From an uncultured Chloroflexia bacterium (GTDB lineage: Bacteria; Chloroflexota; Limnocylindria; Limnocylindrales; CSP1-4), in contig CAVSKR010000006.1 of assembly GCA_963728635.1 (NCBI GenBank), positions 43,203 through 107,202 of the forward strand: 64,000 nt of DNA, written 5' to 3'. Made by a program: the position numbers and the translations under genes. Position 1 is the first letter of the stretch; each line of letters begins with the position of its first letter. Below the pieces are notes generated by a model. The model worked only from the letters and a program-made list of their open reading frames with translations, did no database searches and was not told where the DNA came from. Positions 608-22,820 of the stretch are shown one piece after another.

Positions 608-638
608 CGATACGGTCCCGGAGGCGTAGGCTGGCGCC

Positions 639-4252: not shown

Positions 4253-4985
4253 GCGCCGTGCCGCTGCATGTCTGGCTCTGGCCGGCTGGGCCGCGCTCGC
4301 GGTCCTCGGCTGCACGGTCCAACCCGGCTCGACGGCGCCGTCGGCGGAGCGATCCGAATACAGCCAGCCGGCAGCGATCGCGTCGGGGACCGTGGCGCCG
4401 ACGATGAGCCCGTCGATCGCGGCCAGCCCGGCCCGCTCCTTCACGCTCCCGAGTCCGATCGCCAGCCCGTTCGCCCCCGACCTCGAGGCGCGTCTCCCGG
4501 CCGATCTGCGGGGGATCCCCCTCATCCGGGTGAGCACGCCTCTGTCGAACCTCGCCGGTGGCAGCGACATGTGCATCATCCTGTGCTCGCACGAGCCCGG
4601 CCGACTGGCGGCCGCGGCGGGCGTGGACATCGACGCCATCCGCTTCGCTGTCGCGCTGCCGCCCGACGACGCGGATCTGCCCATCCAGATCGTCGCGATC
4701 CAGTTCCCCGGCCTCGTCACGGACCAGCTGATCCCGGTCCGACTCAAGGCGGGCGGCCACTCCGGCCCACCGGAGAACGACCCACCGCCGCGCGTCACGG
4801 AGCTCTCCGCAGGGTCGGAGACCGTGACCCTCGTCGAGTGGGCCTGGTGGTTCAACGAGGCGGGCAACGGTGAGTACCTCTATGCCCGCGACGACATCCT
4901 GTACATCATCAACGGCCTCGCCCCGCAGGACGGCCATACGCCGGCTGACGTCACGCTCGCCGTCGAGGCGCTGGCAAGGCTCTGA
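4239..4985 (+). CDS. hypothetical lipoprotein embedded in paa operon
   Basis: In-frame TTG at 4239 gives [28 protein letters not shown] (signal peptide + lipobox LGC); ORF open to 4985; no ATG/GTG available; high GC3. Confidence 0.45.
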
Positions 4986-5023
4986 CCGGCGGTCCTCGAC
5001 GCGTCCGCGCCTACAATCGGACG

Positions 5024-6256
5024 ATGACCCGAGATTCGAATCGTCCGCTTCGGGACGCCTGGATCGTCGAGGCCGTCCGCACGCCGATCGGGCGCTACGG
5101 CGGCGCGCTTGCGACCGTCCGACCTGACGATCTCGCCGCGCTCGTCCTGCGCGCGGTGGTCGATCGCGCGGGTGTCGACGCGGCCCTCGTCGAGGACGTC
5201 ATCCTCGGCTGTGCCAACCAGGCCGGCGAGGACAACCGCGATGTCGCCCGCATGGCGCTCCTGCTCGCCGGCTTCCCGGTCGAGGTCGGAGGGCAGACCG
5301 TCAACCGTTTGTGTGGCTCCGGGCTCCAGGCGATCAACTCGGCGGCCCATGCGGTCGCTGTCGGCGACGGCGACGTCTTCATCGGCGGCGGTGTCGAATC
5401 GATGACGCGGGCGCCGTACGTCATGGCCAAGGCCGAAGGCCCGTGGGACCGCGGACCCCGCGAGCTCCAGGACACCACTCTCGGCTGGCGGTTCGTGAAC
5501 CCGGCCCTCTCCGAGAAGCACTACCCGTATTCGATGGGCGAGACCGCCGAGAACGTGGCGGAGCGCTGGAACGTCGGTCGCGAGCGCCAGGACGCGTTCG
5601 CGCTCGAGAGCCAGCAACGCGCAGTCGCGGCGATCGAGGCGGGCCGTTTCGACGACCAGATCGTCCCGGTCGAGGCGACCGGGCGGAAGGGCGAGCTGAC
5701 CGTCGTCTCCCGCGACGAGCATCCCCGTGCCGATACGTCAGCCGAAGCACTCGCCAAGCTGCGCCCGGCGTTCCGCGGCTCGGGTGGCACGGTGACCGCC
5801 GGGAACAGCTCGGGCATCAACGACGGCGCGTCGGCGGTCCTGCTCGTGGAGGCCGAGCGGGCACGCGATCTCGGGCTGAAGCCGCTCGCCCGCGTCGTCT
5901 CGACCGCGGTGGCAGGCGTCGATCCGGCGATCATGGGCGTCGGCCCCGTGCCCGCGACACGCAAGGCGCTCGAGCGCGCCGGTCTCGGTGTCGACGATAT
6001 CGACCTCATCGAGCTCAACGAGGCGTTCGCATCGCAGTCACTCGTGTGCATCGACGAGCTGGGCCTGGACCCGGCGAAGGTCAACGTCAACGGCGGCGCG
6101 ATCGCGCTGGGGCACCCGCTGGGCATGAGCGGCGGCCGGCTGATCACGATGCTGACCCACGAGCTGCGGCGCACGGGCGGGCGTTACGGGCTCGCGACGA
6201 TGTGCATCGGCGTCGGGCAGGGCATCGCGACGATCGTGGAGCGCATCGACTCGTAA
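5024..6256 (+). CDS. paaJ: 3-oxoadipyl-CoA / acetyl-CoA C-acyltransferase (thiolase, PaaJ-like)
   Basis: 410-aa thiolase with catalytic Cys ([11 protein letters not shown]), GHPLGMSG and MCIGVGQG motifs. Confidence 0.85.
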
Positions 6257-9266: not shown

Positions 9267-10243
9267 GCCGCCGCACTGCGTTCCGCGCGGCCCTCGGCAT
9301 CGCGATCAGCGTCGCCGCGGTGGCGATCCTGCTCCGGTCGGTCGACGTCGGTGACGCCCTGGCCGTCCTCGGCCGCGCCGATCTCGGGATCGTCCTGCTC
9401 ATGGTCGTGTCGGTCATCCTGGATGTCGCGGCCCGCGGTGCTCGCTGGCAAGCGCTGCTCGTGCCGATCCGCCGCCTCGCATACGTGCGGGTGCTCGGCT
9501 ACACCTTCCTCGGCTACCTCGCCAACAACGTCCTGCCCGCACGGCTCGGCGAACTGGTCCGCAGCCATGCCCTCGGCGAGGGTGAGGGCCTGAGCCGGCC
9601 GACCGTCCTCGGCACGGTCGTCGTCGAGCGGATCGTCGACACGGTGATCGTCGTCGCGCTCGCGGCGCTCTCCGTCGTGATCCTCGGGGTCGGTGGGATC
9701 GTGTCGACGGGGGTCGTGCTCGGCGCCGTCTTCGTGGGCCTGCTGCTCGTCGGGCTGTTCGTCGCGGTCCTCAGTCATCGCTTCCCGGGGGCCGAGCGCG
9801 TGAGCGCCGCTGCGGAGCGGTTCCCGCGGATCCTCGACCTCGCGCGGCGGCTGCGCGAGGGCCTCGCCGTCGTGAGCCGGCCCGGGACGGTCGCCGCCGC
9901 GCTCGCCTTCAGCGCCCTTGCATGGACGTTCTCGATCCTCACGTTCGTCCTCGGCGGCCGGGCGCTCGGCATCGACCTGAGCCCCGCCGAGGGCGCGCTG
10001 CTCTCGAGTGGCGTCGCTCTCGCGACGATCGTGCCGTCAGGCCCTGGCTACCTCGGCACCTTCGAGCTCACCGCGGTCGGCATCGCGACCCAGTTCGGTG
10101 TCGAGGCGAACGCCGCCTTCGCGATCGCGCTGCTCGTCCACGCGATGATCCTGCTGGTGACCTCGGTCGGCGGCGCGGTCTCCGCGCTGCGACTGGGTGT
10201 CGGACTGTCGACCGGGTCGCGGGACGAGAGTCAGGCGAGTTAG
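9263..10243 (+). CDS. flippase-like / lysylphosphatidylglycerol-synthase TM-region family membrane protein (UPF0104)
   Basis: GTG overlapping GT2 stop; ~8 predicted TM helices; conserved ANNVLPARLGE motif; coupled to the GT2 gene. Confidence 0.7.
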   Translation: MSRRTAFRAALGIAISVAAVAILLRSVDVGDALAVLGRADLGIVLLMVVSVILDVAARGARWQALLVPIRRLAYVRVLGYTFLGYLANNVLPARLGELVRSHALGEGEGLSRPTVLGTVVVERIVDTVIVVALAALSVVILGVGGIVSTGVVLGAVFVGLLLVGLFVAVLSHRFPGAERVSAAAERFPRILDLARRLREGLAVVSRPGTVAAALAFSALAWTFSILTFVLGGRALGIDLSPAEGALLSSGVALATIVPSGPGYLGTFELTAVGIATQFGVEANAAFAIALLVHAMILLVTSVGGAVSALRLGVGLSTGSRDESQAS

Positions 10244-10707
10244 GCCGCGCGCTCCGTTGCCGGGTCGTCGCTGACCGGGGCGTCGTACGGCGCGAACGAC
10301 AGCGGCAGGCCGGCCCGGCCGGTCACGCGCACGAACTCGAGCGTGTAGCGCTCGTACATCTCGTCGAGCAGCGTGATCGCCTCGAGGTGGTTCGGCCGCC
10401 CGGACGCGGCGCGCGCCTCGGCACGGGACGTCCAGAGGCAGAACGACAGGCAGGTGCCGTCATCGGCCGTCGGCCCCTTGAAGTAGTGGACGAAGCCCGG
10501 AGCCGAGGCGGCCTCGAGATGGGCTCGCTCGTCGTACTCGGCGAGGCGCACTTCGTCCGCGTCGACTCGATGGACGGATCTGAACGCCACCAGGTACCAC
10601 TCGCCCTCGCCGAGCTGCTGCGCGACGTCACTCCAGTCGAAGGCATCGGCGATGGGCAGCCACGCGTACGAATCGGAGACCGGTCCGAGAGCCGCGAGCG
10701 CGTCCAT
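10240..10707 (-). CDS. hypothetical protein
   Basis: 155-aa ORF from ATG at 10707 (MDALAALG...) with high GC3; no recognisable motifs. Confidence 0.45.
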   Translation of the reverse strand: MDALAALGPVSDSYAWLPIADAFDWSDVAQQLGEGEWYLVAFRSVHRVDADEVRLAEYDERAHLEAASAPGFVHYFKGPTADDGTCLSFCLWTSRAEARAASGRPNHLEAITLLDEMYERYTLEFVRVTGRAGLPLSFAPYDAPVSDDPATERAA

Positions 10708-11012
10708 GTGGCGGCAGCATCCGCTTCCACCGTCCAATTGTCAAATCGTGGAAAGTCCCGCTACCACATCGCGATAGTACCGGCCACCGGCGGACCAGGG
10801 CATCCGCCATGACCTGGGCTCCTGATCTGGCAGGTCAAAGCGACGCGTCAGCATGGATGCTGGGATGAATGTGCAGCGCGGCGCTCGACTTCGTGCCCCG
10901 AGCGTCGGAATCTGCGAGGTGCTCCGCACGTTCGTCGGGCCACGTGACCTCACGCGTCGTTCTGACCTAGGAGGTCAGTCGACCGGCATGTCCGAACGGG
11001 GGTCGGACCGCC

Positions 11013-11762
11013 TCAGTCGGGCGTGAGCGAACGTTCCAATGTCCCGGTCGCTCGGCGAAGCGCCAGACGCGCCCGTGCCTCCCAGCGCCCGCTCGCCCGT
11101 TCCGCCGGGGCGGCCACACCGAGGGCGGCCACGATCCCGTCGTCGCGGAGGACCGGAGCGGCCAGCGTGGTGGCCCCCGGGAAGGTCAACCCGTCGTCCT
11201 GGGCAAATCCTGCGGCGACGATCCTCGGCAGCGCTCGACGGATCGCGGCCGCCTCGACCACGTCGGCCAGCGCGGCATCGGCGACCTCCGGCGGGGCAAG
11301 CGCCAGGAGCACGAGCGCGACGGCGCCCACGTGCAGCGGGCCGGTCTGGCCCGGTTCGAGGACCACCCGCAGCGACTCGGGGGAGGGATGCTGGGCGAGA
11401 CTCGTGGCGGTGAGCCCGATCCGCCGGCTGATGAACGTCGTCTCGCCGGTCGACTCCGTCAGCTCGGCCAGGATCGGTTCAGCGGCGCGGATGAGCTCCT
11501 CCGCTGTCACGATCGGCCCCGCGCCGATCACGTGCAGCCGGGACCCGAGTCGGTAGCCGCCCTCCTGGCGCTCGACGAACCCGAACTCCGTCAGCGTGCG
11601 CAGGTATCGGTAGATCGTCGAGAGCGGGGTCTCGAGGAGCGTGCTGAGCTCATCCGCGCGGATCTCGCCCCGATCGGCGATCGTCAGGAACACGCGCAGG
11701 CCGCGCGCGAACGACGTGTCTTCGCCAGCTTCTTCGGGGGGTCGATCGAGGGCCGTGGTCAT
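11013..11762 (-). CDS. IclR family transcriptional regulator
   Basis: N-terminal wHTH (LSTIYRYLRTLTEFGFVER) and C-terminal IclR effector domain; divergent to the betaine catabolic operon. Confidence 0.85.
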   Translation of the reverse strand: MTTALDRPPEEAGEDTSFARGLRVFLTIADRGEIRADELSTLLETPLSTIYRYLRTLTEFGFVERQEGGYRLGSRLHVIGAGPIVTAEELIRAAEPILAELTESTGETTFISRRIGLTATSLAQHPSPESLRVVLEPGQTGPLHVGAVALVLLALAPPEVADAALADVVEAAAIRRALPRIVAAGFAQDDGLTFPGATTLAAPVLRDDGIVAALGVAAPAERASGRWEARARLALRRATGTLERSLTPD

Positions 11763-11809
11763 AGGGTCTCCGGGGGCCTGGGGAGCGGTCAGGGTACCGC
11801 AGCAGCGCG

Positions 11810-12958
11810 ATGACGCGGCGTCGCGGGCCGGTCGGCGATACTGCGCTCGTGAGGATCAGCGCCATCCGGCTGCAGCGGCTGCGTGTGCCGCTCGACCCAC
11901 CCTTCCCGGCGGCATGGGACCCGGTGCCGCGCACGGAGTTCCCGGTCACGGTCGTCCGCGTCGAGACCGATGAGGGCGTGACGGGCATCGGTTCGGGCGA
12001 CACGATGGATGGGTTCGAGGCATTCGAGCACCTGTTCATCGGGCAGGACCCGTTGGCGATCGCACGCCACGTCCGCGTCCTCGAGACGATCGACTTCCAT
12101 GCCGGCCGCTACTGGCCGCTCGAGGCGGCGCTGTGGGATATCGCCGGCCAGGTCGCCGGCGTCCCGGTCGCGTCGCTGTTCGGTGGTGCGAGCGATGGCC
12201 TGCCCGCCTACGCCTCGTGCGGGATGCTCCTGCCGGCGGCTCAGCGCGCCGAGTCCGCGCTGCGCCTCCGCGAAGAGGGTTTCCGCGCGCTCAAGATCCG
12301 CGTCGATCCGCGCCGACTCGAGGAGGGGCTCGCCGCGGTGACCGCGACACGAGCCGCCATCGGCGATTCGATGGCGATCATGGTCGACCTGAACCAGGGC
12401 TGGCGGATGGCCGGCGACGTCACCCCGTCGATCGACGTGACCGCCGCGCGGGAGATCGCCGCCCGGCTCGCCGATGACGGCGTGCTCTGGCTCGAGGAGC
12501 CCCTGATCGGCACGGACCTGCGGGGGCTGGCTTCACTGCGTGCGTCGGGGCTCGGCATCCGGATCGCGGGCGGGGAGATGACGCGCACCCATCACGAGGC
12601 GCTCGCCGCGCTCGAGGCGGATGCGTTCGACGTGTACCAGCAGGACGTCGTGCTTGCGGGGGGCATGCTCCGCAACCGGACGCTGGCCGAGCTCGTGCTC
12701 GCCCGCGGCCGCTGGTTCACCCCGCACACCTGGACCAACGGCCTCGGCCTGCTCGCCAATCTGCACGTGGCGGCCGGAGTCGGCGGCGGCCCGTTCATCG
12801 AATACCCGTACGACCCACCGGGCTGGACCCCGGAGCGACGCGACGCGTTCCTCGCCGAGCCCATCCGACCGGATGCCGACGGCATCCTCCATGTCCCGGT
12901 GGCGCCAGGCCTGGGCGCGGCACTCGACGACGTCTCGATCCGGAGGTACGCCGCATGA
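11810..12958 (+). CDS. enolase superfamily enzyme (mandelate racemase / muconate lactonizing enzyme family)
   Basis: Metal-ligand motifs MVDLNQGW and LEEP, capping and barrel domains; an alternative GTG start exists at 11849. Confidence 0.8.
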   Translation: MTRRRGPVGDTALVRISAIRLQRLRVPLDPPFPAAWDPVPRTEFPVTVVRVETDEGVTGIGSGDTMDGFEAFEHLFIGQDPLAIARHVRVLETIDFHAGRYWPLEAALWDIAGQVAGVPVASLFGGASDGLPAYASCGMLLPAAQRAESALRLREEGFRALKIRVDPRRLEEGLAAVTATRAAIGDSMAIMVDLNQGWRMAGDVTPSIDVTAAREIAARLADDGVLWLEEPLIGTDLRGLASLRASGLGIRIAGGEMTRTHHEALAALEADAFDVYQQDVVLAGGMLRNRTLAELVLARGRWFTPHTWTNGLGLLANLHVAAGVGGGPFIEYPYDPPGWTPERRDAFLAEPIRPDADGILHVPVAPGLGAALDDVSIRRYAA

Positions 12959-14472
12959 CAGCGACCGCACCGAGTGGGCCGACCGCGGCCGACTGGATCG
13001 CACGCGCGGACGCGGTGGAGCCGCGCAACGAGGCATTCATCGACGGCCGGTTCGTCCCAGCGGCCTCGGGCAGGACGTTCGACGACATCGCCGGTCGCGA
13101 CGGCCGTGTGATCACGCGTGTCGCGGAGGGAGGGCCCGAGGACGTCGACCGTGCGGTCGCCGCCGCGCGTCGTTCGTTCGATGATCGGCGCTGGGCCGAT
13201 ATGTCGCCGGCCAAGCGCAAGATCATCCTGCTCAAGCTCGCCGAGTCGATGCGCGCGAACAGGGAGGAGCTCGCGCTCCTCGAATCGCTCGATGTCGGCA
13301 AGCCGATCCGCGACGCCCTATCGGTCGACGTGCCGTCGTCGGCCAAGACGATCCAGTGGTTCGCCGAGACCATCGACAAGGTCTACGGCGAGGTCGGCCC
13401 GACGGGACCCGACGCGATGTCGCTCGTGACACGCGAGCCGATGGGGGTCGTCGCGGCCATCGTCCCGTGGAACTACCCCTTGATCGTGACGGCATGGAAG
13501 CTCGGCGCCGCGCTGTCCACGGGCAACTCGGTCGTGCTCAAGCCGGCCTCCGCCTCGCCCCTCACCGCGCTCCGGCTCGCGGAGCTCGCCTCGGAGGCAG
13601 GTCTGCCGGATGGCGTCCTCAATGTCGTCCCGGGACCCGGCCGGGTGCTCGGCGAGGCGCTCGCCCGCCATCCGGGCGTCGACAAGATCGCGTTCACCGG
13701 GTCGACCGAGGTCGGCCGTTCGCTGCTCCGGGCGATCGGCGAGACCGATGTCAAAGCCATCTCGCTCGAGCTCGGTGGCAAGAGCCCGCAGGTCGTGCTC
13801 GGTGATGTCGGCGACCTGGCGGCGGCAGCCACATCGATCGGCGACGGGATCTTCTACAACAGCGGCCAGACCTGCAACGCCGGCTCGCGCCTCATCGTCC
13901 ATCGGTCCGTCCGGGAGGAGCTGGTCGAGCGCGTCGCGGAGATCGGGAGCGGGATGGCTCCGGGCGAGCCGCTCGACCCGGCGACCCGCCTCGGTTCGAT
14001 CGTCGATGCCGGCCAGCTCGACAAGGTGCTCGGCTATGTCGAGCTCGGCCAGCGCGAGGGCGCGCGGCTCGTCACCGGCGGACAGCGCGTCCGCGAGGAC
14101 ACCGGCGGCTACTACGTCCCACCGACGATCCTCGACGGCGTCGACAACGGCTGGCGCGTTTCGCGCGAGGAGATCTTCGGTCCGGTCCTGACGGTCACCG
14201 AGTTCGACGACGAGGCCGAGGCGATTCGAATCGCGAACGACACGCCGTACGGTCTCGCCGCCGGCGTGTGGACGCGGGACATCACCCGCGCGCATCGGCT
14301 GGCGCGCGCGCTCCGTGCCGGGACCGTCTTCATCAACACCTTCGACACCGCGGACATCACCGTCCCGTTCGGCGGCTACAAGCAGTCGGGCTTCGGACGC
14401 GACAAGTCGCTCCACGCGCTCGATGGCTACACCCAGCTCAAGACGACCTGGATCGACCTGTCCGGTGGATGA
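12955..14472 (+). CDS. NAD(P)+ aldehyde dehydrogenase (candidate betaine-aldehyde dehydrogenase)
   Basis: ALDH motifs: catalytic Cys in GQTCNAGSR, ELGGKSP, GTVFINT, and the NAD-binding region; ATG overlaps stop of the upstream gene. Confidence 0.9.
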   Translation: MTATAPSGPTAADWIARADAVEPRNEAFIDGRFVPAASGRTFDDIAGRDGRVITRVAEGGPEDVDRAVAAARRSFDDRRWADMSPAKRKIILLKLAESMRANREELALLESLDVGKPIRDALSVDVPSSAKTIQWFAETIDKVYGEVGPTGPDAMSLVTREPMGVVAAIVPWNYPLIVTAWKLGAALSTGNSVVLKPASASPLTALRLAELASEAGLPDGVLNVVPGPGRVLGEALARHPGVDKIAFTGSTEVGRSLLRAIGETDVKAISLELGGKSPQVVLGDVGDLAAAATSIGDGIFYNSGQTCNAGSRLIVHRSVREELVERVAEIGSGMAPGEPLDPATRLGSIVDAGQLDKVLGYVELGQREGARLVTGGQRVREDTGGYYVPPTILDGVDNGWRVSREEIFGPVLTVTEFDDEAEAIRIANDTPYGLAAGVWTRDITRAHRLARALRAGTVFINTFDTADITVPFGGYKQSGFGRDKSLHALDGYTQLKTTWIDLSGG

Positions 14473-14485
14473 GGAAAAGCCACTC

Positions 14486-16051
14486 ATGACGGACATGGAC
14501 TCGGCGGCAGGCCAGGGGCTGCAGCGCCGCCGCGGCGGTGGACGCGCCGGGCACGAGCGCAGCCGCCTCCCGATGCAGCGGCCGTGGGCGCAACCGCGGA
14601 TGCGCTACAAGCCGACCGAGGTGCTGTCGGCCGACGAGATCGAGTCGATCCACCACGCCTCGCTGCGCGTCCTGTCCGAGCTCGGGATGGACTTCCTAGA
14701 CGCCGACGCGCGCGAGGCGCTGCGCGGTGCCGGGGCCGAGACGTCGCCGGATACCCAGCGCGTCCGCTTCGACCCGGACATGGTCACCGGGGCGATCAAG
14801 ACGGCGCCGTCGTCGTTCACGCTCCACGCCTGGAACCCCGAGCACGACCTGCGGCTCGGCGGCGACTGGATGGCGTTCGGGACCGTCGGCAGTCCGCCGA
14901 ACGTGTCGGACCTCGACCGGGGCCGGCGCATCGGCAACCGGGTCGATTACCAGAACCTGCTACGGCTGGGCCAGGCGCTGAACACCGTCCACTTCCTCGC
15001 CGGCTATCCGGTGGAGCCCGTGGACCTTCATCACGGCGTCCGGCATCTGCATGCGACCCACGACGCGCTGACGCTCATGGACAAGGCGATCCACTGCTAC
15101 AGCCTCGGTCGCCAGCGCAACGTCGACGTGCTGGAGATGGTCCGGATCGCGCGCGGCGTGGAGGACGCCACCCTCGATACCGAGCCGTCGGTGTTCACGG
15201 TCGTCAATTCCAGTTCCCCGCTCCGACTCGACGCCCCGATGCTCCAGGGGATCATGGCGTTCGCCGAGCGCAACCAGGTGGTGTGCATCACGCCGTTCAC
15301 GCTGGCGGGCGCCATGGCGCCGGTGACGCTCGCCGGCGCGCTGGCCGAGCAGAACGCCGAGGCGCTGGCCGGGATGGTCCTGACCCAGGTCGTCCGCCCC
15401 GGATCTCCGGTCATCTACGGGGGCTTCACCTCCAACGTCGACATGCAGTCGGGCGCGCCCGCGTTCGGGACCCCGGAGTACATGCGGACGGCCATGATCG
15501 GCGGTCAGCTGGCGCGTCGGTACGGTGTGCCGTATCGCTCGTCCAACGTGAATGCCGCGAACGCGCTCGACGCGCAGGCCGCCTACGAGTCGGTCTTCTC
15601 GTTGTGGGGCGCGATCATGGGTGGCGTCAACCTGCTCATGCACGGGGCGGGCTGGATGGAGGGCGGTCTCCACGCCGGGTACGAGAAGATGATCCTGGAC
15701 GCGGAGCTGCTGGGGATGGTCGAGGCGTTCCTCGATCCGGTCGTGGTCGACGACGCGTCGCTCGCGTTCGAGGCCATGCAGGACGTCGGCCCGGGCGGCC
15801 ACTTCTTCGGAACGGAGCACACGCAGAGCCGCTACAGGACGGCCTTCCACAGGCCGATGCTCAGCGACTGGCGTAACTTCGAGACGTGGGAGGAGGCCGG
15901 TTCCCCCGAGGTGCCGGGCAAGGCCAACCGCATCTGGAAGGAGCTGCTCGCGGCCTACGAGCCGCCGCCGATGGACCCGGCCGTCCGCGAGGAGCTCGAC
16001 GCGTTCGTCGCACGCCGGGTCGCCGAGGGTGGCGTCCCGACCGACTATTGA
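14486..16051 (+). CDS. trimethylamine methyltransferase (MttB) superfamily protein, non-pyrrolysine member (candidate quaternary-amine:corrinoid methyltransferase)
   Basis: 521-aa uninterrupted ORF with no in-frame TAG; MttB-family sequence throughout (ESIHHASLRVLSELGMDFLD...VNLLMHGAGWMEGGL); GAGGAAAAG RBS; ORF-track start 14315 overlaps the ALDH. Confidence 0.85.
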   Translation: MTDMDSAAGQGLQRRRGGGRAGHERSRLPMQRPWAQPRMRYKPTEVLSADEIESIHHASLRVLSELGMDFLDADAREALRGAGAETSPDTQRVRFDPDMVTGAIKTAPSSFTLHAWNPEHDLRLGGDWMAFGTVGSPPNVSDLDRGRRIGNRVDYQNLLRLGQALNTVHFLAGYPVEPVDLHHGVRHLHATHDALTLMDKAIHCYSLGRQRNVDVLEMVRIARGVEDATLDTEPSVFTVVNSSSPLRLDAPMLQGIMAFAERNQVVCITPFTLAGAMAPVTLAGALAEQNAEALAGMVLTQVVRPGSPVIYGGFTSNVDMQSGAPAFGTPEYMRTAMIGGQLARRYGVPYRSSNVNAANALDAQAAYESVFSLWGAIMGGVNLLMHGAGWMEGGLHAGYEKMILDAELLGMVEAFLDPVVVDDASLAFEAMQDVGPGGHFFGTEHTQSRYRTAFHRPMLSDWRNFETWEEAGSPEVPGKANRIWKELLAAYEPPPMDPAVREELDAFVARRVAEGGVPTDY

Positions 16052-16085
16052 CCCGACCGTCCCAGGGACCGCTCGAGGGGATCGC

Positions 16086-18554
16086 GTGAAGAAAGACACC
16101 CAGGTCGTCGTCATCGGTGGGGGCGTCGTCGGCGCCAGCGTCCTGTACCACCTCACGAAGGCGGGCTGGACCGACGTCCTGCTGCTCGAGCGGCGCGAAC
16201 TGACCGCCGGCTCGACGTGGCACGCCGCCGGCGGGATGCACACGCTCAACGGCGACCCGAACGTCGCACGGCTGCAGCAGTACACGATCCAGCTGTACGA
16301 GGAGATCGAGCGCCAGTCCGGGCAGGACTGCTCGATCCACCTGCCGGGTGGGCTGATGCTGGCCGACACGGAGGTCCGGATGGACTTCCTCCGGATGGCG
16401 GTCGCGCGCGGCCGCTACCTCGGCATGGACCTCGAGCTGATCACGGCCCAGGAAGCGGCCGACATGTTCCCGCTGATGGACCCGCAGTACTTCGTGGGCG
16501 CGCTGTACGACCCCGTGGAGGGGCACGTCGACCCGACCGGGGTCACGCGCGCGTACGTGAAGTGCGCCCAGATGGCGGGAGCCGAGGTCCACCAGCACAT
16601 GCCGGTGACTGCCCTCGAGCAGCGTGCCGACGGCACGTGGGACGTCCGCCTCGAGAACGGCGAGTCGATCCATACCGAGCACGTCGTCAACGCCGGCGGA
16701 CTGTGGGCGCGCGAGGTCGGCCGGATGGTCGGCGTGGAACTGCCGGTCCTCGCGATGGAGCACCACTACCTCATCACCGAGGACATGCCGGAGGTCGCGG
16801 CCCAGGTCGCCAAGACCGGTCACGAGATGCCGATGGCGCTCGACTTCGCCGGCGAGATCTACATCCGCCAGGAGGGCGGCGCGATGCTCATGGGCACGTA
16901 CGAGCAAGCGTGCGTGCCATGGTCGCCGCGCGAGACGCCGTGGGACTTCGGGTCGCAGCTGCTCAAGCCACAACTCGATCGGATCACGCCGGAGCTGTCG
17001 GTCGCGTTCAAGCACTATCCGCCGATGCACACGGTCGGCATCCGCCGTGTCGTCAACGGCCCGTTCACGTTCTCTCCGGACGGCAACCCGCTCGTCGGGC
17101 CGATCCGCGGCCTGCGTGGCTACTGGGTCGCATGTGCGGTGATGGCCGGGCTGTCGCAGGGCGGTGGCGTCGGCCTGGCGCTGGCGAACTGGATGACCGC
17201 CGGCGACGACGGCGACAGCGGGATGGATATCTGGGCGATGGACGTCGCCCGTTACGGTGACTACGCCACGCTCGGGTACACGAACGCCAAGGTCCAGGAG
17301 AACTACCGGCGCCGGTTCCGCATCACGTTCCCGAACGAAGAGCTCCCGGCCGCCCGACCACTCCTCACGACGCCGATCTACGACCGGCTGACCGCCGCGA
17401 ACGCCGTGTGGGGCGCGACCTTCGGGCTCGAACACGCCCTGTGGTTCCAGAAGGCCGGGTTGGAGCCGAAGGAGGACGTGACGTTCCGCCGCTCGAACGC
17501 GTGGGAGTGCGTGGCCGAGGAGGTCGCCGCCGTCCGCGAGCAGGTCGGCATGACCGAGATCTCGAACTATGCGAAGTACCGCGTCACCGGTCCCGGTGCC
17601 GAGTCATGGCTGTCGTCGCTGCTGACGCAGCGGATGCCCGCGCCCGGCCGGATCACGCTGACCGCGATGCTCAACGAGGGTGGCCGGATCGTCGGCGAGT
17701 TCACGGTCGCCCGAGCCTCCGGGGCCGACGAGTTCTACCTGTTCGGCTCGCTCCCGGCCGAGGTCCACCACTCGCGCTGGTTCCGCCACCATCTGCCGGC
17801 CGACGGCAGCGTCCGTTTCGAGGTCCTGGGCCTGTCGCTGACCGGCCTGTCGATCGCAGGCCCACGCGCACGCGACCTTCTGTCATCGATCGCGCCCGAC
17901 CTCGACCTCTCGACCGAGGCCTTCCCGTTCATGACGTTCCGCAAGGTGGATCTCGGGATGGTCCCGGCCATCGTCGCCCGGATCAACTACGCCGGCGACC
18001 TCGGCTACGAGCTGTGGGTGGCACCGGAGCACCAGCGAGCCCTGTTCGACAGGATCGTCGCGGCCGGCGAGGAGTTCGGGCTGCGCCTCTTCGGCATGCG
18101 CGCCCTGATGTCGCTCCGCCTCGAGAAGAGCTACGGGACGTGGTTCCGCGAATACCGCCCGATCTATACGCCGTCCGAGGCGGGGATCACCCGCTACATC
18201 AAGCTCGACCACGACTTCATCGGTCGCGCCGCGCACGAGGCCGAGCTCGCGGACGGCGGTCCGAAGCGCCGGCTCGTTGCCTTCGTCGTCGAGCCCGACC
18301 CGGACGATCCCGCCGATGTCATCGGCGACGAACCGATCTGGCACGACGGCGCGGTGGTCGGATGGGTCACGTCGGGCGGGTACCTCCATCACGTGCGGGA
18401 GTCTCTCGCGCTGGGTTATGTGCCGACCGCGCTGGCGACGCCCGAGGGTCCGGGCGGGAGCGGTTTCGAGATCGAGATCATCGGGCATCGGCGCCCGGCC
18501 CGACTCCAGCCGGAGCCGCTGTTCGATCCCAGCGGCGCAAGGATGCGCCAGTGA
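16086..18554 (+). CDS. dimethylglycine/sarcosine dehydrogenase family FAD oxidoreductase with C-terminal GcvT (aminomethyltransferase) domain
   Basis: GTG start after GAGGGG; DAO-type FAD motif VVVIGGGVVGASVLYHL; C-terminal folate-binding GcvT domain; 823 aa. Confidence 0.85.
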   Translation: MKKDTQVVVIGGGVVGASVLYHLTKAGWTDVLLLERRELTAGSTWHAAGGMHTLNGDPNVARLQQYTIQLYEEIERQSGQDCSIHLPGGLMLADTEVRMDFLRMAVARGRYLGMDLELITAQEAADMFPLMDPQYFVGALYDPVEGHVDPTGVTRAYVKCAQMAGAEVHQHMPVTALEQRADGTWDVRLENGESIHTEHVVNAGGLWAREVGRMVGVELPVLAMEHHYLITEDMPEVAAQVAKTGHEMPMALDFAGEIYIRQEGGAMLMGTYEQACVPWSPRETPWDFGSQLLKPQLDRITPELSVAFKHYPPMHTVGIRRVVNGPFTFSPDGNPLVGPIRGLRGYWVACAVMAGLSQGGGVGLALANWMTAGDDGDSGMDIWAMDVARYGDYATLGYTNAKVQENYRRRFRITFPNEELPAARPLLTTPIYDRLTAANAVWGATFGLEHALWFQKAGLEPKEDVTFRRSNAWECVAEEVAAVREQVGMTEISNYAKYRVTGPGAESWLSSLLTQRMPAPGRITLTAMLNEGGRIVGEFTVARASGADEFYLFGSLPAEVHHSRWFRHHLPADGSVRFEVLGLSLTGLSIAGPRARDLLSSIAPDLDLSTEAFPFMTFRKVDLGMVPAIVARINYAGDLGYELWVAPEHQRALFDRIVAAGEEFGLRLFGMRALMSLRLEKSYGTWFREYRPIYTPSEAGITRYIKLDHDFIGRAAHEAELADGGPKRRLVAFVVEPDPDDPADVIGDEPIWHDGAVVGWVTSGGYLHHVRESLALGYVPTALATPEGPGGSGFEIEIIGHRRPARLQPEPLFDPSGARMRQ

Positions 18555-20806
18555 CCGAGCGGTCCCCCAAGGGAGACGCGAAGGGCGCAGGGCGGATCGT
18601 CGTCGACGGGCGCCCGGTGCCGTTCGAGCCCGGCGATTCCGTCGCTATCGCGATCCTCCGGACCGGCGTGACCCCGGCCGGCGGCGGGACGCAGTGCCTG
18701 AGCGGTGACTGCGGGAACTGCCTGGCCCAGGTCGACGGGGTGGCGTACGTCCGGACCTGCCAGGTCGGCGCACGACCGGGGCTGGCCGTCGTCCGGCATC
18801 CGGCGGACGGCCTGCCGCCCCTCCCGACGATCTCCGGTGCGGACCTGTCGGCGTCGCTGTCGGGGCCCGACATCGAGGTCCTGCGCGCCGAAGTCGACGT
18901 CGCCGTGATCGGCGCGGGCGACAGTGGCCGGGAGGCGGCTGCGACCGCGGAGCGCGCCGGCAAGCGCGTCCTCGTCCTCGATGCCGCGGGAGGCGATGAG
19001 GTCGTCGGCGTCTATCCCGGTCCGATGCTGGTCGTTCGGACGCCGACGCTGATGCTCCACGTCCACGCCCAGGAGATCGTCGTCGCCACCGGCGCGGCCG
19101 AGCTCCACCCGGTCGTCCCCGGCAGCGACCTCGCGGGTATCGTGACCTCGCGCGCCGCCCAGCGATTGCACGCGGCCGGCGTGGAGATGGGCGCGGCGAT
19201 CGCCGTCGGGACGCCACCGCCGGGCGTGCCCAGCATCCCGGTGGCCGGCCAGCTCATCCGGCTCGAAGGCGACGAGCGCGGTCGCGTGCGCGCGGTCGTG
19301 ACCGCCGACGACTGGATCGGGGCCGAGACCACGACGCCCTGCGACACCGTCATCGTCGGGCTCGGCTTCGCGCCCCGCGACCTGCTCGCGCGGATGGCCG
19401 GGGAAGTGCCACTGAGCGTGGTCGGGTCGGCGGCGTTGCCGGCTGCCCTGCCCCCCGCTCCGACCAGCGGGATCGTCTGCCCCTGTTCGGGGACCACCGT
19501 CGACGACCTGCAGGCGGCCTGGGATCGCGGCTTCCAGGAGCTGGAGCTCCTCAAGCGGTCGAGCCTCGCCTGCCTCGGCACGTGCCAGGGCAGCGCGTGC
19601 CTGCCGCACGTCCGCGCGTGGATCGCGGCGCGGACCGGCGAGGTGCCGGCGCCCTTCACCGCGCGTCCCGCCTCGCGGCAGATCACGCTCGCCGAGGCTG
19701 CCGCGGACACCCAGGTCGATGTCTTCCGGCGGACGCCGCTGCACGAAGAGCACCTCGCGCTCGGCGGGCGGCTCGACCGGTTCGGGAACTGGTGGCGGCC
19801 GTGGCACTACGGCGACGCGATCGCCGAGTACTGGAGCGTCCGCGAGGGCGTGTCGGTGGGCGACGTCAGCACGCTCGGGAAGGTCGTTGTCTCTGGGCCC
19901 GACGTCGTCGAGTTCCTCGAGCGGCTGTACCCGTGCAACGTCGCCGACATCCGGCCGGGTCGCTCGCGCTACGCGCTGCTGCTCAACGAACGCGGCCACA
20001 TCATGGACGACGGGATGATCCTGCGCGAAGCGGAGACCCGGTTCGTGCTGACGTTCACGTCGGGTGGTGCGGCGAACGCCGAGATGTGGCTCCGCGACTG
20101 GGTCGACGAATGGGGGCTCCGGGTCCACGTGATGGACCGCACGATGTCCCTCGCCGCGATCAACGTCACGGGGCCGCTGGCCGGCCAGCTCCTTCGGCGC
20201 GCCGGTCTGGCCGAGCCACCGGCATTCCTCGGGCACGTCCGGGCCGACGTGGCGGGGGTCCCGTGTCACGTGATGCGGCTCTCCTTCACCGGCGAGGCAT
20301 CCTGGGAGCTGCATCACCCGGTCGATCGGTCGGTGGAGCTGTGGCGAGCGCTCCTGTCGATGGGCGAGGAATGGGGAATCCGCCCGCACGGTCTCAAGGC
20401 GCTCTTCGGCCTGCGGCTCGAGAAGGGCCACGTGATCGTGGGCATGGACACCGAGCTGGACACGACGCCGCGTCGGGTCGGGATGCCGTGGGCCGTCCGC
20501 ATGGACAAGCCGACGTTCATCGGTCGCGCGGCACTCGAAAGGACGGCGAACCAGCCCGACCATCGCCGGCTGCGCGGGTTCACGATGGAGGGTGACGCGC
20601 CCATCGAGGGCTCGCCGATCTTCGTCGACGGCGAGATCGTCGGCCACATCTCGGGCAGCTGGGCGTCACCGATCCTCGAGAAGACCGTGATGCTCGGCTG
20701 GCTCAAGCGGTTGCCGTTCGCCGAGACGGTCGAGATCGACGGTCGCGAGGCGGTCGTCACGCCGACTCCGTTCTATGACCCGGAGGGCCACCGTGCACGT
20801 GCTTAG
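18551..20806 (+). CDS. soxA: sarcosine oxidase alpha-subunit family protein (N-terminal 2Fe-2S, FAD/NAD-binding and GcvT domains)
   Basis: GTG overlapping upstream stop; N-terminal Cys cluster CLSGDCGNCLAQVDG, VAVIGAGDSG dinucleotide fold, GcvT domain at C-terminus; 751 aa is short for SoxA; 1132-aa ORF-track call is an out-of-frame upstream extension. Confidence 0.75.
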   Translation: MTERSPKGDAKGAGRIVVDGRPVPFEPGDSVAIAILRTGVTPAGGGTQCLSGDCGNCLAQVDGVAYVRTCQVGARPGLAVVRHPADGLPPLPTISGADLSASLSGPDIEVLRAEVDVAVIGAGDSGREAAATAERAGKRVLVLDAAGGDEVVGVYPGPMLVVRTPTLMLHVHAQEIVVATGAAELHPVVPGSDLAGIVTSRAAQRLHAAGVEMGAAIAVGTPPPGVPSIPVAGQLIRLEGDERGRVRAVVTADDWIGAETTTPCDTVIVGLGFAPRDLLARMAGEVPLSVVGSAALPAALPPAPTSGIVCPCSGTTVDDLQAAWDRGFQELELLKRSSLACLGTCQGSACLPHVRAWIAARTGEVPAPFTARPASRQITLAEAAADTQVDVFRRTPLHEEHLALGGRLDRFGNWWRPWHYGDAIAEYWSVREGVSVGDVSTLGKVVVSGPDVVEFLERLYPCNVADIRPGRSRYALLLNERGHIMDDGMILREAETRFVLTFTSGGAANAEMWLRDWVDEWGLRVHVMDRTMSLAAINVTGPLAGQLLRRAGLAEPPAFLGHVRADVAGVPCHVMRLSFTGEASWELHHPVDRSVELWRALLSMGEEWGIRPHGLKALFGLRLEKGHVIVGMDTELDTTPRRVGMPWAVRMDKPTFIGRAALERTANQPDHRRLRGFTMEGDAPIEGSPIFVDGEIVGHISGSWASPILEKTVMLGWLKRLPFAETVEIDGREAVVTPTPFYDPEGHRARA

Positions 20807-21209
20807 GTCGCCGGGCGTTCGGGTCGTCGCGTCGCCCGCGGCGATCGATGGCGCGGCGTGGCAGCGTGCCAACCCAGGCCCCGATGATGACTTCGAGCCG
20901 CTGATCCTGCGGTTCGCGCCTGACGAGGTCTTCGCGATCGGGGCGACCGGAGTCCGCATCGACGACCCCGACGCGATCACCGAGGCCGAGGTCGGCTACG
21001 TCGCGGTCATGTTCCCCGTGGACGAGTTCATCGACTTCGTCCTGCCCCGGATCGAATGGCCGGCGCCCGCCACGCGGCCGGCCTTCGCACAGGGCGCGAT
21101 CGCTGGGGTGCCCGCGAAGCTGTATATCGATTCGACCGGCGCGGCCACGGTCTTCGTCCTCGCCGCCTATCTCGACGACCTCCTGGCGCGTCTGCCGGTG
21201 CCGACGTGA
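20775..21209 (+). CDS. soxG: putative sarcosine oxidase gamma-subunit-like protein
   Basis: 144-aa ORF between soxA and soxB in operon position; assignment by context only; start ambiguous (ATG 20775, GTG 20793 or 20799). Confidence 0.4.
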   Translation: MTRRATVHVLRSPGVRVVASPAAIDGAAWQRANPGPDDDFEPLILRFAPDEVFAIGATGVRIDDPDAITEAEVGYVAVMFPVDEFIDFVLPRIEWPAPATRPAFAQGAIAGVPAKLYIDSTGAATVFVLAAYLDDLLARLPVPT

Positions 21210-21330
21210 CGCGGCACCCCATGCGCCGTCACCGCCGCGTTGCCGACTGCGCGTGCTCGCTCACGCACGTCGGAGTGCGATCGCTCGCATGCTCGTCGGC
21301 GCCTTGCGCTGACACCACCTGGGGAGCCGC

Positions 21331-22554: not shown

Positions 22555-22800
22555 ATGCTCTGGCTCGATTGCCCACGCTGCGGCCGGCGACCGCTGGAGG
22601 AGTTCACCTTCGGCGGCGAACGTCGCCAGGTGCCGGACTCGATCACCGACCCGGCCGACCGCGACTTCGACGATGTCTGGATCTTCGAGAACCCCGATGG
22701 CCCCTCGACCGAGCGCTGGTTCCACGCCCACGGATGCCGGCGCTGGCTGACCGTCCGGCGGGACACGAGCGTCGACCAGGTGCTCGAGATCCTGCCGTGA
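22555..22800 (+). CDS. soxD: sarcosine oxidase delta subunit
   Basis: 81-aa protein with zinc-ribbon CPRCG...HAHGC; ATG immediately after soxB stop. Confidence 0.8.
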   Translation: MLWLDCPRCGRRPLEEFTFGGERRQVPDSITDPADRDFDDVWIFENPDGPSTERWFHAHGCRRWLTVRRDTSVDQVLEILP

Positions 22801-22820
22801 CGGGCCTGGCCGACCGCGAA

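Follow-up and report, generated by a model that had tools for sequence, protein, structure and literature searches.

In soil and sea, quaternary amines (glycine betaine, choline, carnitine, ergothioneine and hercynine) act as major osmolytes and supply nitrogen and carbon, and trimethylamine is formed from them. That MttB-type demethylases and MIO-less trimethylammonia-lyases (TMA-lyases) are used aerobically was recognised only recently (PMC12478193; bioRxiv 10.64898/2026.04.22.720169). An enolase-superfamily member encoded in a betaine catabolic cluster is the 4-hydroxyproline betaine 2-epimerase/proline betaine racemase HpbD, which deprotonates the alpha-carbon of an onium-bearing carboxylate and employs K164/K266 as bases, D194/E219/D242 as metal ligands and W312/D293 as betaine binders (PMC3950512). 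Mandelate racemase (MR) of P. putida needs two bases for racemisation, the (S)-specific K166 and the (R)-specific H297 (PMC9835602).

The closest solved relatives of the enzyme described here are the MR-subgroup proteins 4GGB/4HPN, proposed to be the galactarolactone cycloisomerase of Agrobacterium tumefaciens, and 5OLC and 5XD7-9, which are cycloisomerases for 3,6-anhydro-galactonate (6.5e-30 by sequence, TM 0.84 by fold). These enzymes carry a His/Asp dyad and whose names imply beta-elimination with a ring oxygen leaving. Single-histidine acid-sugar dehydratases of the same subgroup (e.g. L-rhamnonate dehydratase) use one His/Asp dyad as the sole acid/base for a syn beta-elimination; we propose the same mechanism for our enzyme, whose partners are not sugar-acid genes. 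A literature search for MR/MLE enzymes occurring together with MttB, Fae or ergothionase yielded nothing relevant.

The enolase-superfamily gene and its operon

We analyzed a stretch of 64,000 nucleotides of Chloroflexota (Limnocylindria) DNA, referred to as the window, in which an enolase-superfamily gene (ENO) leads a tightly packed operon of nine genes. The ENO reading frame spans exactly 11810-12958 on the plus strand and its codon-position GC (0.75/0.51/0.89) is typical of genuine genes in this window of 70% GC; it is real, coding and full length. Since most homologues have 369 aa, the true start may be the GTG given as the second option below.

11013 to 11762, minus strand: IclR-family regulator, divergent (Pfam HTH_IclR and IclR_C), syntenic in 40-47 Limnocylindria loci
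11810 to 12958, plus strand: ENO, enolase-superfamily (mandelate racemase subgroup) enzyme, starting at ATG 11810 (382 aa) or GTG 11849 (369 aa)
12955 to 14472, plus strand: aldehyde dehydrogenase (ALDH), KauB/PuuC/AldA type, translationally coupled to ENO (Pfam Aldedh 7e-168)
14486 to 16051, plus strand: methyltransferase of the non-pyrrolysine MttB superfamily, beginning at either 14486 or 14495 (Pfam MTTB 2.7e-194)
16029 to 18554, plus strand: DMGDH-like flavoprotein with domains DAO, FAO_M, GCV_T and GCV_T_C
18551 to 20806, plus strand: SoxA-like gene, part of a Sox-like block spanning 18551 to 22800
20775 to 21209, plus strand: 144-aa ORF in the SoxG position, without family match
21331 to 22554, plus strand: SoxB
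22555 to 22800, plus strand: SoxD
22797 to 23984, plus strand: iron-type alcohol dehydrogenase (Fe-ADH), final operon gene (Pfam Fe-ADH)

Pfam assigned MR_MLE_C (4.4e-47) and MR_MLE_N (5.3e-07) to ENO, its AlphaFold2 model reached a pLDDT of 93.6, and Foldseek matched this model to enolase-superfamily structures with a TM of about 0.85 (0.8-0.87 over many members), MR-subgroup structures ranking at the top. Together these results reveal the architecture of the superfamily, an N-terminal capping domain followed by a C-terminal (beta/alpha)7beta barrel. The nearest relatives by PDB sequence were 4GGB/4HPN, TalrD and MR, and identity to any characterised homologue among the sequence and fold matches peaked at about 30%. 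A sequence-only reading of this DNA had placed an enolase-superfamily enzyme at the head of the operon, in agreement with the Pfam domains, the predicted fold and the divergent IclR gene upstream.

The stop codon of ENO overlaps the start of the next gene (ATGA at 12955-12958), which encodes ALDH and not MttB. This ALDH scored 607 bits against the NCBIfam model for PuuC and 512 bits against BADH, both under the cut-off, its top PDB matches were 5IUU, 6B4R (KauB) and 4LIH at about 600 bits, and orthologues with 50-59% identity adjoin ENO in Alphaproteobacteria. Judged by its matches, it is closest to KauB, PuuC and AldA, enzymes for cationic omega-amino or guanidino aldehydes. MttB matched 4YYC and MtgB (9YCE/2QNE) at about 1e-100 and keeps equivalents of MtgB R312 and H348, while Gly occupies the positions of both Y97 and F356, the aromatic residues by which MtgB holds glycine betaine (PMC13080624). 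The absence of both aromatics makes a substrate besides plain glycine betaine conceivable. The Fe-ADH had NAD-dependent methanol dehydrogenase 8ZRL as its top PDB match (1e-60) and scored 222 bits against the NCBIfam GbsB-type choline dehydrogenase (cut-off 550).

The genes flanking the operon bear no relation to a betaine or methylated-amine pathway. No corrinoid protein for MttB was present among the annotated window genes, and neither Fae nor GFA was found in the window; a 165-aa ORF on the minus strand (10240-10737) considered as Fae was rejected, as it is not a Fae homologue. A promoter and terminator scan of 10700-24800 returned zero sites, a result that is uninformative at 70% GC. Formally, the route from choline or betaine to glycine in the window is complete without ENO.

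The active site of ENO

A MAFFT alignment of ENO with MR reproduced the canonical MR numbering and located the following catalytic features.

12293 to 12301, plus strand: K162-I-R164 motif, located where barrel strand 2 ends and aligned with MR K164-x-K166, with Arg at the position of the (S)-specific catalytic Lys
Within 12386 to 12577, plus strand: predicted Mg2+ ligands D193 (12386-12388), E229 (12494-12496) and E256 (12575-12577), aligned with MR D195/E221/E247, invariant
Within 12644 to 12727, plus strand: His/Asp dyad of Asp279 (12644-12646) and His306 (12725-12727), aligned with MR D270/H297, family-invariant

With the same fold and subgroup as MR, and 23-24% identity to it, ENO matches it at K162, D193, N195, E229, E256, D279, H306 and E331 (MR K164, D195, N197, E221, E247, D270, H297 and E317), but differs in its capping residues W36, D37, R41 and D64, in its gene context and in lacking the Lys at position 166. 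Acidic metal ligands stand at the ends of strands 3, 4 and 5, the third of them (Glu256) in the state of the MR subgroup, and the alignment likewise places the strand-7 His and the strand-6 Asp of this subgroup at H306 and D279. The K-x-K motif of the subgroup, whose second Lys is the base in racemases and two-base dehydratases, is on the other hand replaced by K-x-R, with Arg at position 164 in all 120 of 120 close homologues and in all three clades described below. The engineered MR mutant K166R (1MDL) was among the fold matches of ENO, and the family is naturally in the state of that mutant; once its reaction is known, it would add a natural 'half-site' MR-subgroup enzyme to the repertoire of the superfamily.

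As the exchange of the second Lys for Arg164 equals the K166R change of MR, a two-base epimerase mechanism is unlikely, which undermines the epimerase role that had been proposed for ENO. His306 is, going by the alignment, the only obvious general base. Arg can serve as a general base in certain lyases, and R164 may act as a second base of this kind.

HpbD (2PMQ, 4E8G, 4J1O) was compared through its published catalytic residues and the fold search rather than its full sequence. The Lys pair on strands 2 and 6 of HpbD, a pattern that we take to be of the muconate-lactonizing-enzyme type, is absent from ENO, which has R164 on strand 2, Asp279 at the position of the beta6 Lys and His306 at beta7. 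The third metal ligand is Glu256 as opposed to Asp242 in pdHpbD, and no HpbD structure occurred among the 50 best fold matches. The gene contexts differ as well, HpbD being accompanied by the Rieske demethylases HpbB/C, the flavoenzyme HpbA and the LysR regulator HpbR, and ENO by ALDH, MttB, DMGDH, Sox, Fe-ADH and IclR. The analogy with HpbD on which the sequence-only reading was built thus fails at the catalytic residues (D193/E229/E256, K162-x-R164, Asp279 and His306), and cis-3-hydroxy-L-proline dehydratase, which it had named as the second enzyme for comparison, gave 50.8 bits over a partial alignment (NF043002, cut-off 500). Two MR/MLE genes on the plasmid of Pseudomonas MPC6 that adjoin a BCCT transporter were considered as HpbD proxies and dropped, since their best PDB matches were not HpbD but 3SJN and 4JHM, two structures without assigned function.

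It is quite unlikely, in our estimate, that ENO is an alpha-betaine racemase or epimerase (for proline betaine, hydroxyproline betaine or hercynine) that combines His306 with an unconventional R164 or K162 base and feeds a stereospecific MttB or TMA-lyase. Such an enzyme would have a superfamily precedent (PMC3950512) and would suit both the MttB without the glycine-betaine aromatics of MtgB and the vicinity of enzymes for N-alpha-trimethyl amino acids, including a TMA-lyase that is translationally coupled to ENO in L173-L175 and present in Limnocylindria. Against it, not a single HpbD catalytic or metal signature is found in ENO, every family member has Arg in place of the (S)-face base (MR Lys166, PMC9835602), and the constant partnership with ALDH and alcohol dehydrogenases would be left unexplained by a racemase. 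For two of the compounds at issue a racemase would moreover have little to do, because natural ergothioneine and hercynine are L-isomers.

As far as residues can indicate, the active site is that of an acid-sugar dehydratase of the MR subgroup, the very pattern that the earlier proposal had named as speaking against itself. An ordinary acid-sugar dehydratase or galactarolactone cycloisomerase that merely lies beside betaine genes nevertheless strikes us as very improbable. In its favour are the NCBIfam matches, led by talarate/galactarate, arabinonate and galactonate dehydratases, the closest structure (4HPN) and JGI labels such as 'D-galactarolactone cycloisomerase' and 'L-rhamnonate dehydratase'. 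The scores, however, lie 5-7 times under the curated cut-offs: among the models for TalrD/GalrD, GalD, AraD, RhamD and ManD the best was TalrD/GalrD with 102.9 bits (cut-off 500), the rest being lower, with 54 bits for L-rhamnonate dehydratase (cut-off 393). Identity to 4GGB/4HPN and 5OLC is 24-29% (29% for 4HPN), and 4GGB and 5OLC have K-x-K where ENO has K-x-R. Neither the window nor the roughly 170 related loci showed sugar-acid transport, kinase or aldolase genes around ENO, the neighbours being methylated-amine and aldehyde genes; a KDG-type aldolase or uronate dehydrogenase was likewise not seen beside it. The link to methylated amines, with translational coupling, is kept across three phyla down to 45% identity.

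Family boundary and gene partners across three phyla

To delimit the family we defined an 18-residue signature (W36, D37, R41, D64, K162, R164, D193, N195, W198, R199, E229, E256, R259, D279, H306, W308, N310 and E331), all of which (18/18) are found in the window ENO. At identities of at least 45% this signature was invariant, in 79/80 Limnocylindria as well as in actinobacterial and alphaproteobacterial clades; at about 41% or below it was broken and the partner genes vanished at the same point, with an N-methyl/betaine gene or Fae/GFA in none of 24 outgroup loci. The capping residues follow this boundary.

11915 to 12001, plus strand: family-specific capping residues W36, D37 and R41 of the 20s loop and D64 of the 50s loop, all invariant in homologues with at least 45% identity and replaced at about 41% or below

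Together with R199 and R259, these four residues define the K-x-R family, and ENO represents a new, sharply bounded and probably isofunctional family within the MR subgroup. The family comprises thousands of metagenomic sequences (each of three homologue searches gave over 100 clusters at an identity of at least 80%) and is highly conserved, without assigned function and wrongly annotated as belonging to sugar-acid metabolism. Knowledge of the reaction would close a gap in the pathways for methylated amines and correct a widespread annotation. The long 'fusion' representatives P0387, P0407, P0458, P0466 and P0468 are frameshifted read-throughs of adjacent genes and not true fusions, and P0417 is a degenerate homologue without the catalytic residues.

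The tie to betaine and methylated-amine catabolism that had been suggested for the window extends to Chloroflexota (Limnocylindria), Actinomycetota and Alphaproteobacteria, where ENO orthologues adjoin MttB, BHMT, DMGDH, Sox, betaine transporters and TMA-lyases. All 59 of the 59 Limnocylindria loci with at least 3 kb on each side contained an N-methyl/betaine gene. MttB was present in 65/80 and ALDH in 63/80 loci of this class, MttB directly following ENO where ALDH was absent, and Limnocylindria loci also had a divergent operon facing ENO that encodes IclR, an OpuA-type transporter and a TMA-lyase. Alphaproteobacteria repeatedly showed the order Fe-ADH, ALDH, ENO, joined in some loci by MttB, DMGDH, Sox, BHMT or the pair of carnitine dehydrogenase and BKACE. 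In Actinomycetota a MIO-less TMA-lyase and/or Fae was translationally coupled to ENO, and genes for ALDH, a beta-hydroxyacid dehydrogenase and Fe-ADH came next. The most constant partners overall were ALDH and alcohol dehydrogenases.

Members of the family were also found in clusters of the glycine-betaine type and in carnitine and histidine-betaine/ergothioneine clusters. As the carbon skeletons of these compounds differ, the association argues against a role bound to one cyclic betaine. Of the earlier suggestion that the pathway acts on a cyclic betaine in place of plain glycine betaine, the second half thus remains conceivable given the exchanged MttB aromatics, while the cyclic betaine itself is disfavoured.

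In 22/37 loci of the actinobacterial clade, the gene immediately before ENO encodes an Fae that passes the NCBIfam cut-off (142-157 bits versus 118), its stop codon overlapping the ENO start; Fae also adjoins ENO in Caulobacter and other alphaproteobacterial loci. This tight coupling in Actinomycetota is unexplained by a simple route from ALDH to a lyase. One could envisage that ENO makes or uses a Mg2+-stabilised enolate to cleave a C-C (aldol/retro-aldol) or C-O bond, with formaldehyde or methanol set free or taken up, and operates with Fae, in the manner of the archaeal Fae-Hps, for which NCBIfam has a bifunctional model (NF009833) joining Fae to a TIM-barrel enzyme that forms an enediolate and depends on Mg2+. 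The gene pair of Fae and ENO is similarly arranged, and GFA, a class-III-ADH-like Zn-ADH, a methanol-dehydrogenase-like Fe-ADH and formate dehydrogenase are encoded nearby. The likeness to Fae-Hps is organisational only, however, as Hps is outside the enolase superfamily, and to our knowledge no member of this superfamily cleaves or forms a C-C bond. Furthermore, the window and all 80/80 Limnocylindria loci (Fae or GFA in 0/80) have ENO without these partners, and genes handling formaldehyde are expected beside DMGDH/Sox-type demethylases for independent reasons. We regard a formaldehyde-coupled ENO as improbable.

Proposed function

The reading that we prefer, tentatively and at slightly less than an even chance, is that the ENO family is an accessory module of trimethylammonium catabolism (betaine, choline, carnitine and histidine-betaine) that acts as a single-base beta-elimination lyase on a cationic carboxylate. 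The carboxylate of the substrate would bind Mg2+ and K162, and His306 would abstract the alpha-proton to give a Mg2+-stabilised enolate. With a second base on the opposite face absent, this enolate would not be racemised and would collapse by beta-elimination, with OH, an amine/onium group or an ether/ester oxygen as the leaving group, which would make ENO a lyase or dehydratase.

The expected substrate class would be small carboxylates with a cationic (ammonium or onium) group, which D37, D64, Trp36, Trp198 and Trp308 might hold. Such a carboxylate could be made by the adjacent KauB/PuuC-type ALDH, or else ENO could yield an aldehyde that the ALDH consumes. Beta-alanine betaine would be a candidate, as would carnitine, demethylated carnitine, and those 2-hydroxy-3-onium or 3-amino propanoates from which pyruvate would form. 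The family-specific residues R41, R199 and R259 could point to an anionic or polyhydroxy substrate instead.

In a broader formulation, which we consider rather doubtful, the family would supply a missing oxygen-independent step shared by the quaternary-amine catabolism of abundant soil and marine bacteria, e.g. an enolase-type cleavage of the C-N/C-O bond in carboxylates with a beta- or gamma-onium group (beta-alanine betaine, carnitine/demethylated carnitine or a glyceryl- or lactyl-linked onium compound) or a Fae-coupled cleavage that releases formaldehyde. If true, either cleavage would give the enolase superfamily a new type of reaction and open a new branch of betaine/trimethylamine metabolism. 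Four further ideas were set aside because evidence was lacking or the thermodynamics were poor: a reverse Michael addition in which an enoate captures trimethylamine, the Stevens-type rearrangement of glycine betaine, a sulfolactate sulfo-lyase and the dehydration of a C4 acid sugar to 4-hydroxy-2-oxobutanoate.

An unlikely alternative to the lyase on cationic carboxylates is a terminal dehydratase of the pathway for small hydroxy- or amino acids, which would convert, for example, D-glycerate, serine or isoserine into pyruvate and deliver to central metabolism the C2/C3 compounds that betaine demethylation and C1 assimilation leave. The ALDH partner, being of the cationic aminoaldehyde type and not of the glyceraldehyde/semialdehyde type, speaks against this, and both the coupling to the TMA-lyase and the first-gene position by MttB would be left unexplained. 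In its favor are the dehydratase-like MR-subgroup site, in which the conserved N195 aligns with N197, the alpha-OH binder of MR, and tartronate-semialdehyde-reductase-like genes that adjoin ENO in L129, L136, L174 and L175. In L090, the gene after ENO encodes a protein that scores above the cut-off for L-lactate dehydrogenase; a 2-oxo-acid or pyruvate as the product would agree with this, under the preferred lyase reading as well.

The operon headed by ENO

GC content of the window is ~70%, for which reason most of its mechanical ORFs are spurious, and genes were called via codon-position GC. The ORF encoding ENO, the enolase-superfamily protein under study (11810-12958, +; 382 aa; GC1/2/3 of 0.75/0.51/0.89), is genuine and matches Pfam MR_MLE_C (4.4e-47) and MR_MLE_N (5.3e-07), which bears out the superfamily assignment (MR/MLE) of the sequence-only reading. 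As homologues are mostly 369 aa long, translation may start at the GTG at 11849. ENO heads a compact operon of nine genes:

11013-11762, divergent from ENO: IclR regulator
11810-12958 (+): ENO, gene 1
12955-14472 (+): aldehyde dehydrogenase (ALDH), gene 2, ATGA stop/start overlap with ENO
~14486-16051 (+): MttB-family methyltransferase, gene 3
16029-18554 (+): DMGDH-like, gene 4
18551-20806 (+): SoxA-like, gene 5, GTGA overlap
20775-21209 (+): 144-aa ORF without Pfam/NCBIfam match, gene 6, GC3 0.88
(+): SoxB, then SoxD, genes 7 and 8
22797-23984 (+): iron-type alcohol dehydrogenase (Fe-ADH), gene 9, GTGA overlap

The first position proposed for ENO stood, whereas the next gene proved to be ALDH and not MttB. 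The flanking genes are unrelated (glycosyltransferase, lysyl-PG-synthase-like membrane protein, OsmC and luciferase-like monooxygenase).

Several further features were observed in the window. The 144-aa ORF occupies the position expected for SoxG between the SoxA-like gene and SoxB, and is kept in related loci (40-87% identity). At 751 aa, the SoxA-like protein falls short of the TIGR01372 model (~996) and covers only the C-terminal part of this model, plus N-terminal Fer2_4 and partial Pyr_redox_2. A conserved 165-aa ORF beside the IclR gene (10240-10737, -), syntenic in ~46 Limnocylindria loci, had no significant family match (best ABM-like, E = 0.12) and was rejected as a formaldehyde-activating enzyme (Fae), being not Fae-like. 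Other regions encode a phenylacetate or beta-oxidation type cluster at the left end (134-6256, +; enoyl-CoA hydratase, PaaA/PaaC-like, 3-hydroxyacyl-CoA dehydrogenase and thiolase), a 575-aa ATP-dependent DNA ligase with a DUF6812 protein after it (27273-29619, +), and a DNA methylase (-) whose gene overlaps the start of a gene for a 1087-aa AAA_16/TPR/LuxR-type regulator (+; 35190-39538).

Active site and subgroup of ENO

NCBIfam models matched ENO only weakly and far below their curated cut-offs, with talarate/galactarate dehydratase at the top (103 bits versus 500) and cis-3-hydroxy-L-proline dehydratase at 51 bits (cut-off 500). Among solved structures the nearest was A. tumefaciens 4GGB/4HPN (6.5e-30, 29% identity), a proposed galactarolactone cycloisomerase, followed by other proteins of the mandelate racemase (MR) subgroup, TalrD/GalrD and MR itself. 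A confident AlphaFold2 model (pLDDT 93.6, pTM 0.93) gave the same ranking in a fold search, and no entry for HpbD (4-hydroxyproline betaine 2-epimerase) was present among its best 50 matches. The automatic labels carried by ENO homologues ('D-galactarolactone cycloisomerase', 'L-rhamnonate dehydratase' and 'L-Ala-D/L-Glu epimerase-like') were found to be unsupported.

The alignment of ENO comprised 120 homologues, five relatives from plasmids and an MR sequence that reproduces the canonical numbering (K164, K166, D195, E221, E247, D270, H297 and E317). The corresponding ENO residues K162, R164, D193, N195, E229, E256, D279, H306 and E331 form a predicted active site of the MR subgroup, and ENO fits the enolase superfamily and this subgroup by its His/Asp dyad and the Glu as third metal ligand. 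The exception is K-x-K, which ENO lacks since the second Lys position is Arg in every family member; ENO also stays below every equivalog cut-off. An engineered K166R mutant of MR (1MDL), which reportedly lost racemase activity while retaining His297-dependent chemistry on the (R)-substrate, was among the fold matches. The Arg of the ENO family occupies the position of this K166, the (S)-specific base of MR (PMC9835602). With the second base missing, ENO appears poorly equipped for 1,1-proton transfer.

P. denitrificans HpbD employs D194/E219/D242 as metal ligands, K164 and K266 as catalytic bases, and W312 and D293 as betaine binders (PMC3950512). None of its catalytic and metal features occur in ENO, which therefore lies outside the HpbD family. 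Together with the Arg replacing the second base, this leaves the earlier proposal of an HpbD-like epimerase acting on a cyclic betaine unsupported, and at sequence level ENO shows the acid-sugar-dehydratase type of pattern that had been named beforehand as counting against it. ENO is neither HpbD nor cis-3-hydroxyproline dehydratase nor a recognised acid-sugar dehydratase. A betaine racemase of the HpbD type with an unconventional second base would agree with the betaine genes around ENO and is, given these replacements, unlikely.

Family boundary and partner genes

Eighteen positions were read out of every ENO homologue across ~175 retrieved loci. They form a signature (W36, D37, R41, D64, K162, R164, D193, N195, W198, R199, E229, E256, R259, D279, H306, W308, N310 and E331) that is invariant within each of three clades: Limnocylindria (Chloroflexota; 77-94% identity to window ENO, 79/80 loci), MAGs labelled Streptosporangiaceae (actinobacterial clade; 57-69%) and Alphaproteobacteria (45-49%; Paroceanicella, Oceanicella, Rhodobium, Rhizobium deserti and halophytocola, Pelagibius, Caulobacter sp. 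and others). D37, R41, D64, R199 and R259 are replaced at ~41% identity or below. Only ~6 full-length representatives in the 50%-identity library were at least 45% identical to ENO, yet every clade comprises >100 clusters at >=80% identity. This marks a compact family, both abundant and strongly constrained, that is probably isofunctional. A 537-aa homologue (P0417, 44% identity) carries acidic, Pro-rich N- and C-terminal extensions and has Arg, Asn and Gly at the equivalents of H306, D279 and E256, and may be a non-catalytic derivative.

In Limnocylindria, the syntenic order is ENO, ALDH, MttB, DMGDH and SoxA. MttB and ALDH were located within 5 kb of ENO in 65/80 and 63/80 loci, and one or more N-methyl/betaine genes occurred in each of the 59 loci whose flanks extend >=3 kb to either side; in ~9 loci ALDH is absent and MttB directly follows ENO. 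Upstream of ENO, many loci harbor a divergent operon that encodes IclR together with a HAL-family lyase and an OpuA-type ABC transporter for betaine, while others have an SBP_bac_5 transporter and a second MttB paralogue upstream. The lyase lacks MIO in L023, L030, L039, L050, L062, L069, L071, L074 and L080 (46-50% identity to the ergothionase-like lyase of actinobacterial locus L134), and its location beside IclR and the OpuA-type transporter suggests that these soil Chloroflexota break down histidine betaine or ergothioneine, releasing trimethylamine. This arm is missing from the window, as is a ~2.3 kb insert between ALDH and MttB in many loci (L017, L028, L035, L041, L047 and others) whose product, a 568-aa protein resembling ABC1/UbiB atypical kinases, is unexpected in a betaine operon.

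The recurring alphaproteobacterial unit, (LysR) Fe-ADH, ALDH and ENO, was accompanied by MttB and DMGDH (L092, L093, L104), DMGDH-SoxABD (L108), BHMT-like and DMGDH (L099, L148), carnitine 3-dehydrogenase, BKACE and MttB (Rhodobium, L086), AKR and Fae (L088, L097, L100), or, in some genomes, GFA. ALDH (50-59% identity), MttB (54-65%) and DMGDH (~62%) look orthologous to the window genes by sequence, while Fe-ADH (31-36%) represents a different lineage.

In the actinobacterial clade, Fae was encoded directly upstream of ENO in 22/37 loci with overlapping stop/start codons (142-157 bits versus an NCBIfam cut-off of 118), often preceded by Zn-ADH, which in L133 most resembles class III, thiol-dependent formaldehyde dehydrogenases. 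ALDH, beta-hydroxyacid dehydrogenase and window-type Fe-ADH follow ENO; in L121 the order is BHMT-like, DAO oxidase, Fae and ENO. On three long contigs (L173-L175), ENO shows translational coupling to a HAL-family lyase gene. In L125 and L126, urocanase-like, M20 and amidohydrolase genes follow, a set that matches the later part of histidine-betaine or ergothioneine breakdown. The homologous L134 lyase gives a better match to ergothionase 6S7J than to true histidine ammonia-lyases, and SIGQGDL takes the place of the MIO-forming Ala-Ser-Gly triad; MIO-less members of the HAL family are trimethylammonia-lyases that strictly require the trimethylamino group (bioRxiv 10.64898/2026.04.22.720169). 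In L173 (12228-14657), a DMGDH-like gene beside ENO is broken up into four successive ORFs (DAO; DAO and FAO_M; GCV_T; GCV_T_C), reflecting either a pseudogene or frameshift errors in a long-read assembly.

Among the 24 outgroup loci below 42% identity, neither N-methyl/betaine genes nor Fae/GFA were present. The partnership thus belongs to the ENO family and does not reflect phylogenetic inertia within one lineage, and the earlier placement of ENO with betaine genes holds across all three clades.

Neighbouring enzymes and candidate reaction

In a comparison that covered MttB of the window, L026, L086, L092 and L059, the ENO-linked orthologues retain the MtgB residues R312 and H348, which bind the carboxylate, and exhibit Gly at both Y97 and F356, the aromatic residues that hold the trimethylammonium of glycine betaine in MtgB (PMC13080624). 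The motif FG(T/N)V(G/S)SPPNV is common to those of Limnocylindria and Alphaproteobacteria, whereas the second Limnocylindria paralogue keeps an MtgB-like Tyr (PTYGSPFI). Judged from these residues, their substrate may not be glycine betaine. No corrinoid (B12-binding) protein, methyl-corrinoid:THF methyltransferase or betaine transporter was detected among the annotated window genes; OpuA-type or SBP_bac_5 transporters are present in related loci, and an MttB without neighbouring corrinoid protein resembles aerobic MtgB systems, in which MtgC is encoded elsewhere (PMC12478193).

ENO accompanies clusters for differing skeletons (glycine-betaine/choline type, carnitine, and histidine betaine/ergothioneine) with differing first steps (MttB or BHMT demethylation, trimethylammonia-lyase and carnitine dehydrogenase), and the earlier view that it signals more than the textbook choline-to-glycine route was upheld. 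The genes found beside it most steadily encode an orthologous ALDH and alcohol dehydrogenases, the latter drawn from families that can replace one another (two Fe-ADH lineages, Zn-ADH, AKR and beta-hydroxyacid dehydrogenase). The window ALDH is nearest to KauB, PuuC and AldA (~600 bits), whose substrates are cationic omega-amino or guanidino aldehydes, and the window Fe-ADH to NAD-dependent methanol dehydrogenases.

We tentatively propose, at somewhat less than an even chance, that ENO is a Mg2+-dependent single-base lyase or dehydratase and not an epimerase. The His306-Asp279 dyad, as sole base, would abstract the alpha-proton of a Mg2+-bound carboxylate and a beta-leaving group would then be eliminated; the substrate would probably be a small cationic carboxylate that the neighbouring ALDH, of the aminoaldehyde type, either produces or uses. 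A terminal dehydratase forming pyruvate from small hydroxy- or amino-acids would suit L090, which encodes a protein above the L-lactate dehydrogenase cut-off beside the alphaproteobacterial unit; set against the cationic substrates of the ALDH relatives, this appears rather improbable. A Fae-coupled reaction releasing or consuming formaldehyde, analogous to archaeal Fae-Hps, would explain the Fae-ENO overlaps of the actinobacterial clade and is unlikely.

We found no literature that connects MR/MLE enzymes to MttB, Fae or trimethylammonia-lyases, and the family appears new, combining a natural 'half-site' active site with a metabolic context that is likewise new. An onium group would fit the family-specific D37, D64 and Trp residues, while the three family-specific Arg make an anionic or polyhydroxy substrate possible. 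A sugar-acid enzyme hitch-hiking in these operons would agree with the nearest structures, and is very improbable beside the partnership conserved in three clades.
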